Origin: Enterobacteria phage vB_EcoM_IME341
DNA: 64,000 nucleotides
Strand: one strand, 5' to 3'
Sequence record: MH051917
Shown: one piece after another, positions 4,498 through 42,735 of the stretch
Layout: every line of letters starts with the position of its first letter
How positions within the stretch are numbered: the stretch's first letter is position 1
Position numbers and translations under genes: made by a program
Notes under the pieces: model-generated
Databases searched by the model: none
What the model saw: only the letters and a program-made list of their open reading frames with translations
What the model was told of the DNA's origin: nothing

Positions 4498-4764
4498 ATG
4501 GATATCAAATTGTATTACGCTAAACACAAAGTTACAGGTATGGTTGTTGCCGCTATGTATGATGCATCGGGTGAAGGTGATGATGTTACTACAGAGTTAT
4601 CTCTTTCTGAATGTAAATTTCTCCGTCCTTTGGTTGCATCAAAGGAAGATTTACAAAAACTTATCGACGGTAAACTAGATAATGTTGACGGCATAGATAT
4701 TCTTTATGACCTCCGCACTGCATTGTACAGGGGATTGATTGAGATAAAAGAGGTGGTGTTTTGA
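4498..4764 (+). CDS. hypothetical protein
   Basis: ATG 4498 after SD aatgaggag; 88 aa. Confidence 0.45.
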   Translation: MDIKLYYAKHKVTGMVVAAMYDASGEGDDVTTELSLSECKFLRPLVASKEDLQKLIDGKLDNVDGIDILYDLRTALYRGLIEIKEVVF

Positions 4765-4854
4765 GTAGCAAAACGTGGTGCCTTATTTGGATGGCCTGTA
4801 TCCCAGTGATTTGCGTATGTTTTAGTTTATTGTTGTGGAAATTGGCATAAATCA

Positions 4855-5675: not shown

Positions 5676-6125
5676 ATGAATACTTATATGACTCGCCGTA
5701 ACGTTCTGTCTGCTGGTGCTACTACTGTTGCTTATGTTAAGAATGGTGAATACCAAAATGGTAAACCTTCTAAAGAAATCTCTGCTCAGCCAGGCTTCTA
5801 CTTCTTTGTTAAAGGTGGAGCTGATTCTCGTGTCGTAGCGGCTCGTTTTTATGTCGGTAATCAACGTTCTGCTCAAGGTCTTGATGGAATCGTGGCTAAC
5901 ATTCGTAAGAAACGTTCTCAATCAGCTCGCACTATGGCAGTGAACGGTGTGGTGTATGAAGTTCTTTATGTACCGGCTTCTAAAATGAAACCTCTGACTA
6001 CCGGTTTTGGTAAGGGTCAAATTGCAATGGCTTTCACTCGCAATCATAGTTCCGATCTCCAGACACTGGAAGAAATGAACCGCATGTTGGCTGATAACTT
6101 TAAATTCATTCTGCAGGCTTACTAA
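5676..6125 (+). CDS. ndd: Ndd nucleoid disruption protein
   Basis: 149 aa; [45 protein letters not shown] matches recalled T4 Ndd. Confidence 0.85.
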
Positions 6126-41030: not shown

Positions 41031-41354
41031 ATGGAACTTCCTATTAAAGCGGTCGGAGAATATGTTATTCTCGTTTCCGAACCAAAACAAGCTGGTGATG
41101 AAGAAACTACTGCATCTGGTATCGTTATTGGTAAACTTCACCAAGGTGAAATCCCTGAACTTTGTGAAATTTATTCTGTAGGACCTGATGTCCCTGAAGG
41201 TTTTTGTGAAGTAGGCGATTTGACTCCACTTCCTGTTGGTAAGATTGCTAACGTGCCTCATCCGTTGGTTGCATTGGGTATTAAGCAGCCTAAAGAAATT
41301 AAACAGAAATTCGTTACCTGCCACTATAAAGCAATTCCTTGCTTGTATAAATAA
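41031..41354 (+). CDS. 31: gp31 co-chaperonin (GroES analogue)
   Basis: 107 aa; [21 protein letters not shown] and C-terminal [23 protein letters not shown] match recalled T4 gp31. Confidence 0.9.
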
Positions 41355-41492
41355 AATTACGAAGAGGTTGATGTCATACAGAACTTCGGTTGGTGTATGG
41401 GGTTAGCCTCTTCCATACGGCGAGATACAACTCAGCTGGAAATACTGAGACGAACGTGCTCGCCAATCTTTATCTCGAATTGAGAAGCTAAA

Positions 41493-41741
41493 ATGAACAA
41501 ACAACTGAATCACGCTCTTGAACTGCAACGCAACGCTTGGAACAACGGTCACGAAAACTACGGCGCATCTATTGATGTTGAAGCCGAAGCACTGGAAATC
41601 CTGCGTTATTTCAAACATCTGAATCCGGCTCAGGCTGCTTTGGCTGCTGAACTGGAAGCTAAAGATGAACTGAAATTTGCTAAGCCTTTGGCTTCAGCAG
41701 CTCGTAAAGCAGTACGTCATTTTATTATTACCCTGAAGTAA
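41493..41741 (+). CDS. rIII: rIII lysis inhibition accessory protein
   Basis: 82 aa (same as T4 rIII) immediately downstream of gene 31. Confidence 0.6.
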   Translation: MNKQLNHALELQRNAWNNGHENYGASIDVEAEALEILRYFKHLNPAQAALAAELEAKDELKFAKPLASAARKAVRHFIITLK

Positions 41742-41751
41742 AATCGAGGAG

Positions 41752-41821
41752 CCGTCGAATTGTCTGATTATCGATTTACGAATCGGTATGTTTTAGAAGT
41801 ACCGCCCCGACAATTTTACGG
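41752..41821 (+). other. long-range imperfect stem-loop immediately 3' of rIII
   Basis: ccgtcgaattgtc (41752-41764) pairs with gacaattttacgg (41809-41821), about 12 of 13 positions paired including one GU; encloses an inner cgatt/aatcg hairpin. Confidence 0.35.
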
Positions 41822-41849
41822 TGTACCTCTTGAATGTATTTTGTACTAT
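41821..41849 (+). promoter_or_regulatory. T4-type early promoter driving a ~155-nt leader
   Basis: GTGTAC 41821-41826, TACTAT 41844-41849, spacer 17. Confidence 0.45.
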
Positions 41850-42004
41850 CACGCGTCAGAAAAAGGTTATCTGTCTAAGCCGTGGTTGGTATGATGACGA
41901 GGTTTATGGTTATCCTGTCGTTAAATATCCGAAACCTATGTTCCCCTTGAGGGCTTGCGCAGGCAACGCCAATAAGTCCTGCATTCTAATTTAAGAGATT
42001 TAAA

Positions 42005-42166
42005 ATGGCTAAGAAAGAAGTTAAAGTAGTTGACGGTACCTCTAAACGCGCTGGTTACAAGCGTGCGTCCAACAAGCGTATCGATCAGGTAGTTGATAAG
42101 CTTCAAGCTCGTGCTCGTGCGGTATTGCGTGCAGATGCTGCTTGCTTTGGTAAGCCTCAGGCATAA
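42005..42166 (+). CDS. small basic protein (53 aa)
   Basis: MAKKEVKVVDGTSKRAGYKRASNKRIDQVVDKLQARARAVLRADAACFGKPQA; lysine/arginine-rich; followed by strong terminator; below track cutoff. Confidence 0.35.
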   Translation: MAKKEVKVVDGTSKRAGYKRASNKRIDQVVDKLQARARAVLRADAACFGKPQA

Positions 42167-42171
42167 GTTAT

Positions 42172-42196
42172 GGGACTCTTCGGAGTCCCATTTTTG
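42172..42196 (+). terminator. rho-independent terminator
   Basis: gggactc-ttcg-gagtccc hairpin followed by T5. Confidence 0.75.
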
Positions 42197-42217
42197 TTTC
42201 TAAATCTTTAAAAAAGG

Positions 42218-42246
42218 GTGTACATCTCCGGTAGGCATGATACTAT
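42218..42246 (+). promoter_or_regulatory. T4-type early promoter (cassette copy 1)
   Basis: GTGTAC 42218-42223, TACTAT 42241-42246, spacer 17. Confidence 0.6.
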
Positions 42247-42292
42247 AGACCTGTACCAAATAATACGAAAACAAACTGGAGAATAAAATGAA
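42244..42292 (+). repeat. 49-nt direct repeat copy 1 (promoter -10 through start codon)
   Basis: tatagacctgtaccaaataatacgaaaacaaactggagaataaaatgaa identical to 42687-42735. Confidence 0.85.
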
Positions 42293-42656
42293 AATCAATC
42301 TTAACTCATATATCAAATGTAAAGACCACGACGGTTACAAAGCAATCGAAACTAAAGAAATGCAATGGCGCTTGTACAAAGAACAATTTGAATTTGTAGG
42401 TTGCATGACTCCGGAAGGTCCTTCTGATGACTTCTCTTGGAAAATTATGGTAACAAACTTTTTTACCGGTGATACCTACGAACTGAAAACTATCGTAATC
42501 GGTAAGATTCGTTGTAAGACCTATGAAGATGAAGAAACCGGTTATTCTGAAGATGTTACATGGTACCAAAACGGTCGCACCACTGCTGATGATTTGATTG
42601 AAAAAATGAAAGCCAAAGGTGAATTAAATTTAGATAATTGGATTAAAGTTGCATAA
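42288..42656 (+). CDS. hypothetical protein
   Basis: 122 aa; contains CMTP motif shared with the next ORF. Confidence 0.5.
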   Translation: MKINLNSYIKCKDHDGYKAIETKEMQWRLYKEQFEFVGCMTPEGPSDDFSWKIMVTNFFTGDTYELKTIVIGKIRCKTYEDEETGYSEDVTWYQNGRTTADDLIEKMKAKGELNLDNWIKVA

Positions 42657-42660
42657 AACA

Positions 42661-42700
42661 GTTTACTTTGGTACAGGTTGTGTTATTATAGACCTGTACC
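42661..42700 (+). promoter_or_regulatory. early promoter in perfect stem-loop (cassette copy 2)
   Basis: GTTTAC 42661-42666, TATTAT 42684-42689, spacer 17; 9-bp stem ggtacaggt (42670-42678) / acctgtacc (42692-42700). Confidence 0.65.
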
Positions 42701-42735
42701 AAATAATACGAAAACAAACTGGAGAATAAAATGAA
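42687..42735 (+). repeat. 49-nt direct repeat copy 2
   Basis: identical to 42244-42292. Confidence 0.85.

Follow-up and report, generated by a model that had tools for sequence, protein, structure and literature searches.

A conserved RNA block with an H-type pseudoknot between rIII and gene 30.9 of T4-like enterobacterial phages

In T-even phages the leader of the gene 32 mRNA contains a pseudoknot that acts as an autogenous translational operator. A second kind of regulatory unit, the PeSLs, combines an early promoter with a stem-loop in front of early genes; PeSLs were reportedly described by Arbiol and co-workers in 2010 as mobile regulatory cassettes of T4-type phages. Here we analyzed the region between rIII and the homolog of gene 30.9 in Enterobacteria phage vB_EcoM_IME341 (record MH051917), using a stretch of 64,000 nucleotides (nt), called the window in the following. 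This gap contains a chain of conserved RNA modules, one of them an H-type pseudoknot. Related RNA elements are known from phage defence and counter-defence: the pseudo-ToxI of the Pectobacterium phage phiTE is an RNA mimic of the type III antitoxin ToxI (PMC3475682), and for the type III antitoxin TenpI a repeat length of 39-57 nt (PMC3401426) and an H-type pseudoknot with a run of As (PMC12283969) have been reported.

Megablast comparison showed that the window belongs to a Dhakavirus, an IME08/C6/JS98-like T-even phage (97-98% identity over 1.7 kb), and its gap is 100% identical to the rIII-30.9 gap of Escherichia phage C6. The gene order is 31, rIII, an open reading frame (ORF) of 53 amino acids (aa), 30.8 and 30.7 (Table 1). 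The same locus in T4 (NC_000866 130364-131033) has the same genes in the same order, the same terminator and four of the five modules found here (M2, M4, M5 and M6, at 92-98% identity). T4 differs in having no M3 and hence no candidate -10 box, and it carries a degenerate copy of another module, M1, which is missing from the window. From the rIII stop to the 30.9 start the gap measures 263 nt, in agreement with the roughly 260 nt noted in an earlier reading made from this sequence only. The length had been regarded as unusual there, but the gap is long in all enterobacterial T-evens (T4 244, ATK47 ~295, IME08 327 nt), and the 44 distinct rIII-30.9 gaps that we extracted range from 120 to 416 nt.

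Table 1. Positions of genes, RNA modules and signals at the rIII-30.9 locus of the window, and of modules M1 and X in relatives (L numbers are locus labels)
Feature	Position	Strand	Basis or details
Gene 31	41031-41354
Late-promoter motif TATAAATA	41346-41353		upstream of rIII, overlapping the gene 31 stop
rIII, 82 aa, upstream gene of the proposed transcription unit	41493..41741	+	ORF list; annotated in IME08, ATK47, T4
M2, three-helix RNA element	41744..41833	+	alignment A4 of 13 relatives
M2 P1, outer helix	41744-41751 / 41826-41833	+	M2 alignment
M2 P2, long-range stem	41752-41764 / 41809-41821	+	13 positions, one C-U mismatch, wobbles
M2 P3, hairpin with UACG loop	41769-41776 / 41781-41788	+	M2 alignment
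Candidate early promoter, GTGTAC-N17-TACTAT	41821..41849	+	fits the phage's early-promoter pattern
M3, hairpin	41843..41892	+	nine variants fold alike
M4, H-type pseudoknot	41894..41939	+	covariance model R1
M4 H1	41894-41902 / 41914-41921	+	8 pairs, 86% paired, 3 pairs changed on both sides
M4 H2	41905-41911 / 41933-41939	+	7 pairs, 78% paired, 4 pairs changed on both sides
M5, short hairpin CCC-CUUGA-GGG	41943..41953	+	within conserved motif GUWCCCYUUGAGGGCUUG
M6, hairpin GCAGG/CCUGC, conserved loop motif CAAUAAG	41959..41982	+	per-sequence folding
Weak hairpin UUCU/AGAG, 3' arm is the Shine-Dalgarno sequence (SD) AAGAG (41993-41997) of 30.9	41984..41997	+	read from sequence
Gene 30.9 homolog, 53-aa basic protein	42005..42166	+	annotated 30.9 in IME08, T4, ATK47, S16, PM2
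Intrinsic terminator: 9-bp stem, 5 GC pairs, loop TTCG (UUCG in RNA), T-run TTTTTGTTT	42170..42201 (hairpin 42170-42191)	+	terminator scan
M1 in ATK47 (L002)	~2183-2216
M1 in T4 (L003, NC_000866)	locus 4745-4780	-
M1 in L141, L133, L148, L137, L152, L153, L188
Module X in dhaeg (L007)	~692-832
Module X in L008, L129, L134, L136-L138, L140-L145, L148, L149, L152, L161-L166

The gap consists of independently folding modules, M2, M3, M4, M5 and M6, followed by a weak hairpin that occludes the SD of 30.9. Identity to T4 is 86.6% for rIII and 77.4% for 30.9; it is 92% for M2, 98% for M4 and 95.6% from M4 to the ATG, so that the noncoding modules are closer to T4 (92-98% at the nucleotide level) than the genes on either side. 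Covariation backs M2, both helices of M4, M3, M6 and the SD hairpin. On the opposite strand, many of the conserved G-U pairs of M2 and M4 would turn into C-A; since they fit the + strand alone, the folded species is + strand RNA, sense for rIII and 30.9. The modules are under purifying selection at the RNA level. An RNA-level regulatory element had been one of two alternatives offered in the sequence-only reading, and the covarying structures strongly support it; the covariance analysis across related phages proposed there as a check found helices with compensatory changes.

Two overlapping ORFs lie in the gap, one of 44 aa starting with TTG (41760-41894) and one of 57 aa starting with GTG (41821-41994), and some records place hypothetical proteins or an "ori type 2 repeat" in it. 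It is nevertheless extremely improbable that the gap is a decayed or unconventional coding sequence or a DNA-level element (an origin, recombination or packaging site). Neither frame nor length of the ORFs is conserved; stops and frame-shifting indels interrupt both ORFs in T4 and further relatives, although the nucleotides are still 92-98% identical. The substitutions are pairwise compensatory and not at third positions, the G-U pairs are strand-specific, and the GNRA and UNCG loops are RNA signatures. The "ori repeat" annotated in ATK47 and ATK48 is a match to a 10-nt pattern.

Searches for described RNA families gave no match to the gap. Rfam 15 had no match in the gap at E ≤ 10 for the window or ATK47, and no relevant match for eight relatives searched at E ≤ 1; what the scans returned was at chance level (miRNA and snoRNA families; an S15 leader at E = 0.8). 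ARAGORN found no tRNA or tmRNA, tandem repeats were absent from 41300-42300, and blastn with the window gap against 72,556 plasmids and 5,426 E. coli genomes gave no match. A C/D-box or K-turn interpretation of AUGAUGA...CUGA was rejected; the boxes lie in different modules that occur independently of each other.

M4 is the sole universal module. The covariance model R1 detected one copy per source in 37 of 37 sources, the window copy scoring 72.5 bits; M4 is also found in L188, and once in every relative with a long gap. Its strands follow each other in the order S1(5')-S2(5')-S1(3')-S2(3') and both helices covary, which makes it an H-type pseudoknot. Loop L1 has 2 nt and loop 3 (UAAAUAUCCGA) is A-rich. 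In the model alignment 82% of the cells are paired, compared to 35-50% after sliding, and the covariation score is 0.33 versus 0.06-0.12 (0 of 500 shuffles). Three pairs of the model (9-31, 10-30 and 20-51) are never unpaired and occur as 2-3 pair types each. M4 was found neither in the rest of the window nor in ~0.9 Mb of unrelated viral contigs, and a pattern scan of 185,579 species genomes (GTDB) yielded three chance matches only. A 14-mer scan of viral sequences gave mostly chance loci; applied to 100 of these loci (L009-L108), model R1 recovered only the known T4-like copies.

For M2, alignment of the 13 relatives showed that 92% of the cells are paired, compared to 32-62% with the partner strand slid, and that five pairs are changed on both sides, a number reached by none of 500 shuffles. 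Examples are a G-C pair that becomes A-U, with both intermediates present, and the exchange of CUGUC/GACAG for UUGUC/GACAA in the window. The 13-bp imperfect stem of the sequence-only reading is helix P2 and thus real rather than a chance pairing, and the smaller hairpin that it was said to enclose is the UACG-capped P3. In M3, the inner helix is CAGA/UCUG, the 9-nt loop AAAAGGUUA is conserved, and UCUAAG forms an internal loop that is asymmetric; the fold is common to all nine variants. The outer stem is ACUAUCACG/CGUGGUUGGU in the window and is swapped for GCUCUAUG/CUUAGAGC in L150; the inner helix is changed to CAGC/GCUG in L147 and L150.

The same stretch holds the candidate early promoter. 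According to the sequence-only reading, it starts a separate transcript with a leader of about 155 nt and gives 30.9 its own regulation, a model that is compatible with a read-through RNA from rIII. Hexamers and spacing do fit the pattern GT(G/T)TAC-N16-18-TA(C/T)(A/T)AT, which has 12 matches on the + strand of the window and none on the - strand (0.5 expected); such a match would occur by chance in a given 263 nt with a probability of about 1e-3, and the junction sequence is retained in IME08, ATK47 and L133. However, the site has TTG in place of the TGn extended -10 element found in 10 of the 11 other sites and no upstream A-tract, which is clear in 9 of these 11 and weak in one more. Its leader would measure 155 nt, compared to 25-50 nt for the other 11, and a generic sigma-70 promoter scan did not call it. 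T4, S16 and PM2 have no such promoter unit; in L158 the spacer is N11, and in dhaeg and SHFML-11 a 140-nt insertion, module X, splits the unit.

The position of the site relative to the helices bears on the same question. The -35 hexamer lies on and between strands of M2 helices, and the -10 hexamer provides the outer stem of M3 with its 5' strand. A transcript starting at ~41856 could not form this stem, which is nevertheless kept by compensatory change; therefore the selected RNA would be the read-through transcript from rIII. We regard it as unlikely, from the sequence features given above, that the 41821 site is a working promoter, and it is probably not the conserved function here. A separately regulated unit driven from within the gap is likewise unlikely, with hexamers located in M2 and M3 helices and not conserved as a pair.

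The 11 well-formed early promoters of the window (4440, 5598, 8148, 22634, 25902, 26604, 27332, 36269, 42218, 42661 and 51155) all lie on the + strand, an SD and an ATG follow each of them after 25-50 nt, and several share the initial transcribed sequence AGACCTATCAAC. A direct repeat of 55 nt with 96% identity (42238-42292 and 42681-42735) spans the -10 box, 5' untranslated region (UTR), SD and start codon of 30.8 and 30.7 and is PeSL-like. Like the PeSLs, the modules of the gap are short intergenic cassettes shuffled between T4-type genomes, and a PeSL-like repeat lies just downstream; unlike PeSLs, they are promoter-less RNA domains within one transcript.

The 3' part of the gap is formed by M5, M6 and the SD hairpin. 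Of the 35 distinct leader ends listed, 29 have this block beside the start of 30.9; in the remaining ones (L150, L153, L160 and L144) M5 is located at the 5' end of the gap. M5-M6 were examined by per-sequence folding, since the length of M6 varies. The M5 motif is present once in the window and is conserved in relatives with the stem variants CCUC/GAGG and GCC/GGC. The closing stem of M6 has at least seven different versions at the same position in relatives, always complementary; among them are GAACUGG/CCAGUUC, GGGAGC/GCUCCC, GGGAAC/GUUCCC, GACCAG/CUGGUU, GGUGGA/UCCACU and GGCGA/UCGCC. Equivalents of the SD hairpin are stronger in other genera (UCUCC-loop-GGAAGA), and L166 has CACCUC/GAGGAU.

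A pseudoknot in a 5' leader that is followed by an SD-occluding hairpin is also what a riboswitch would offer: M4 might have an aptamer fold of the preQ1, SAM-II or guanidine-III class and control 30.9 via the downstream hairpins, and its compact H-type fold, invariant loop nucleotides (GUU, CGU and the A-rich L3) and covarying stems would suit such a role. We consider this very unlikely. No Rfam family matches even at E ≤ 10, and the gene downstream has no metabolic link. Moreover, M4 and the SD hairpin lie at varying distances from each other, often with further modules in between, so that there is no fixed expression platform.

Comparison of the 44 gaps revealed mosaics of shared modules in varying order, which are gained, lost and reordered as units across genera. 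The order is M2-M3-M4-M5-M6 in the window, M1-M2-M4-M5-M6 in T4, M2-X-M4-M5-M6 in dhaeg and SHFML-11, M5-M4-M3 in L150, hairpin-M4-M1-X-M5-M6 in L141, X-hairpin-M4-M5-M6 in L166 and hairpin-M4-hairpin in PM2. In L198 and L201, which have rIII without 30.9, the modules are absent. Given this distribution, the modules are an insertion-prone addition to an ancestral rIII-30.9 pair.

The genes flanking the gap were identified by homology. rIII belongs to phrog_1457, a lysis inhibition accessory protein (E = 4e-43). The 53-aa basic ORF, pointed out before from the sequence, is a real conserved gene: the peptide matches phrog_1427 (function unknown, E = 4.8e-27) and is homologous to T4 gp30.9 over its full length. 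The motif SKRAGYKR.SN.R is invariant in the gp30.9 alignments of relatives, the window copy included. A Pfam match to the 53-aa protein was not found, and gp30.9 homologs are restricted to T4-like phages of enterobacteria. As expected for a member of this family, rIII lies directly 5' and an intrinsic terminator 3' of the gene. The AlphaFold2 model shows a single long helix (residues 14-48) after a basic tail, with a pLDDT of 70; that the protein might bind nucleic acid is a guess. The terminator assigned downstream of the ORF was recovered by the terminator scan as hairpin plus T-run, and a hairpin with T-run likewise follows 30.9 in T4, ATK47, S16 and PM2, that is, in every genus examined. 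ORF and terminator are known, ordinary features.

The observations establish that the gap is conserved and modular, how its + strand folds, including the pseudoknot, and what the ORF and the terminator are. From them we infer that 30.9 is transcribed together with rIII, that a protein binds the RNA and that 30.9 is controlled in this way. Our preferred, tentative reading is that the gap acts as RNA, as a structured leader made by read-through and as a cassette locus. It would be the 3' UTR of rIII and at the same time the 5' leader of 30.9 on one rIII-30.9 transcript that ends at the terminator behind 30.9. Read-through from rIII would fit the late-promoter motif TATAAATA found upstream of it (41346-41353) and the early, middle and late promoters stated for this gene (PMC9409239). 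The junction would serve enterobacterial T4-like phages as an RNA cassette locus, in which domains are inserted, lost and reordered around M4 as the universal core. Its constant 3' part (M4, M5, M6 and the SD hairpin) may be a leader that binds a protein and so determines how stable the 30.9 message is and how well it is translated. The prime candidate ligand is the basic gp30.9 itself, which would put the gene under autogenous control, like gene 32 of T4 with its leader pseudoknot. The modules of the variable 5' part, M2 and M3 in the window and M1 and X in relatives, would be cargo RNA expressed by read-through. By analogy, the gene 32 leader may serve as a functional model for 30.9: both have an H-type pseudoknot in front of a T-even gene, and both proteins would be small and of nucleic-acid-binding type. 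It differs from M4, which is unrelated in sequence, lies at a variable distance from the start codon and is separated from it by other domains.

Several observations weigh against a read-through leader that controls 30.9. The distance from M4 to the 30.9 start ranges from ~64 to ~300 nt with variable order, and in some relatives M4 stands immediately after the rIII stop; variable distance and order are unusual for a translational operator. H2 is weak in the window, with just four Watson-Crick pairs. The folding energy of the whole gap is ordinary (z = -0.36; no better than shuffles on either strand), and because it is unremarkable, the case for structure rests on comparison and not on energy. 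In L202 and L205 (~1725-1870) a shorter 30.9 (MSARKGYKRKTNKRIN...) starts 9-10 nt after rIII, with no modules in between. L188 (1747-1960), in turn, retains M5-M4-M1-M3' although its 30.9 is cut after ~14 codons and continues in a different frame. RNA and protein can thus be separated.

The modules found in relatives of the window point to another possible role. Many T4-like phages have, immediately behind rIII, one ToxI-like antitoxin unit, M1. A 44-nt M1 query from L141 matched 67 small plasmids by blastn, in 3-10 places each, and in pNMEC-O75B the matches correspond to 5.6 copies of AGGTGATTTGCTACCTTTAAGTGCAGCTAGAAATTC, which stand directly upstream of a ToxN/AbiQ toxin. Four further divergent ToxN loci each have their own ToxI class, and the M1 variants are closest to different classes: those of ATK47 and L133 match best to Lelliottia (31-32 of 35 identities), that of L141 to pNMEC (30 of 36), those of L148 and L137 to E. 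hormaechei (31 of 37 and 29 of 37) and that of L153 to repeat 1 of E. coli pRHB27 (pRHB27-C20_4; 32 of 37). The T4 copy is degenerate (25-27 of 38). In the searchable ToxIN and T4 literature, the M1 unit is not mentioned.

Module X is a multi-helix RNA of ~140 nt with GNRA loops that is inserted at varying positions of the gap and is absent from the window and T4. RNAalifold predicted 44 pairs, 21 of them compensatory, and a covarying loop-loop pairing, CGAUGG/CCAUCG, was seen by eye in the sequences. Rfam, tRNA and tmRNA searches gave no match to X and no E. coli homolog was found; when a relative with six modules was compared to E. coli by blastn, M1 alone matched. A resemblance of X to motifs of the RNase P S-domain and tmRNA PK1 was considered and dropped, as Rfam and ARAGORN gave no support.

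The modules of the gap, M4 included, could be trans-acting decoys that mimic host immune RNAs, the main rival of the leader reading, which we consider doubtful. The RNAs most likely to be mimicked would be antitoxins with a pseudoknot, from type III toxin-antitoxin systems that act by abortive infection. Made from the rIII promoters throughout infection, the decoys would keep toxins silenced after shut-off of host transcription. Besides the M1 variants matching four plasmid ToxI classes, the independent, order-variable behavior of the cassettes fits this reading, as does their presence in L188 without an intact 30.9. The phiTE pseudo-ToxI, a noncoding RNA unit in an intergenic phage region, provides a precedent (PMC3475682), comparable to the ToxI-like unit carried by relatives at this locus, and shows that a phage mimic need not have tandem repeats beside a toxin gene. 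M4, a ~50-nt H-type pseudoknot with an adenosine-rich loop, also agrees with the general architecture reported for ToxI, CptI and TenpI and with the published descriptions of TenpI, to which it was compared by description only.

For the window itself, the comparison gives a different picture. A 36-nt ToxI pattern has no match in the window, no tandem repeats occur in 41300-42300, and the neighbors of the gap are rIII and 30.9, not a ToxN, CptN or TenpN toxin gene. None of the window modules has a bacterial counterpart in the blastn searches of plasmids and E. coli or, for M4, in the scan of species genomes. In contrast to type III antitoxins, M4 occurs as a single copy with no toxin gene beside it, shows no sequence similarity to them, and is universal and conserved instead of diversified, the opposite of the class-switching of M1. 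T4, finally, is ToxIN-sensitive and depends on the TifA protein (PMC9391042, PMC10853763). The most far-reaching version, in which the junction, including that of T4, is a dedicated RNA anti-defence island, read through as a chain of interchangeable decoys, with M1 mimicking ToxI classes, M4, M2, M3 and X mimicking other immune RNAs (TenpI-like antitoxins, noncoding RNAs of other systems) and gp30.9 as partner protein, seems unlikely to us. A ToxI-like profile had a single nhmmer match in the window, at 5922-5944 on the - strand (CGTTCACTGCCATAGTGCGAGCTGA; 13 bits, E = 0.007); it lies antisense within the 5676-6125 ORF and is most likely due to chance.

Upstream of rIII, the gap between gene 31 and rIII (41355-41495) folds far better than shuffled sequences (-47.7 kcal/mol, z = -4.6, 0 of 200). 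A long hairpin with a UUCG cap occupies 41361-41413 of it, and a second one 41419-41464.

An RNA block of 200-400 nt between rIII and 30.9 is not described in the T4 records (including NC_000866), in Rfam 15 or in the searchable literature. The kinds of element to which it may belong, structured phage leaders and phage RNA mimics, are known. T4 and its relatives are the best-studied phages. The conserved, covarying block adds a new pseudoknot family with a clear comparative signature, which is approachable in T4 itself, and offers a first handle on the function of gene 30.9. The junctions bearing M1 make the idea of an RNA cassette locus directly testable. Mimics of ToxI antitoxins from more than one specificity class, in natural T4-like phages, would bring to the Tevenvirinae a counter-defence by RNA that has been shown for phiTE so far. 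The interest of the locus would be greater if the anti-defence reading were true.

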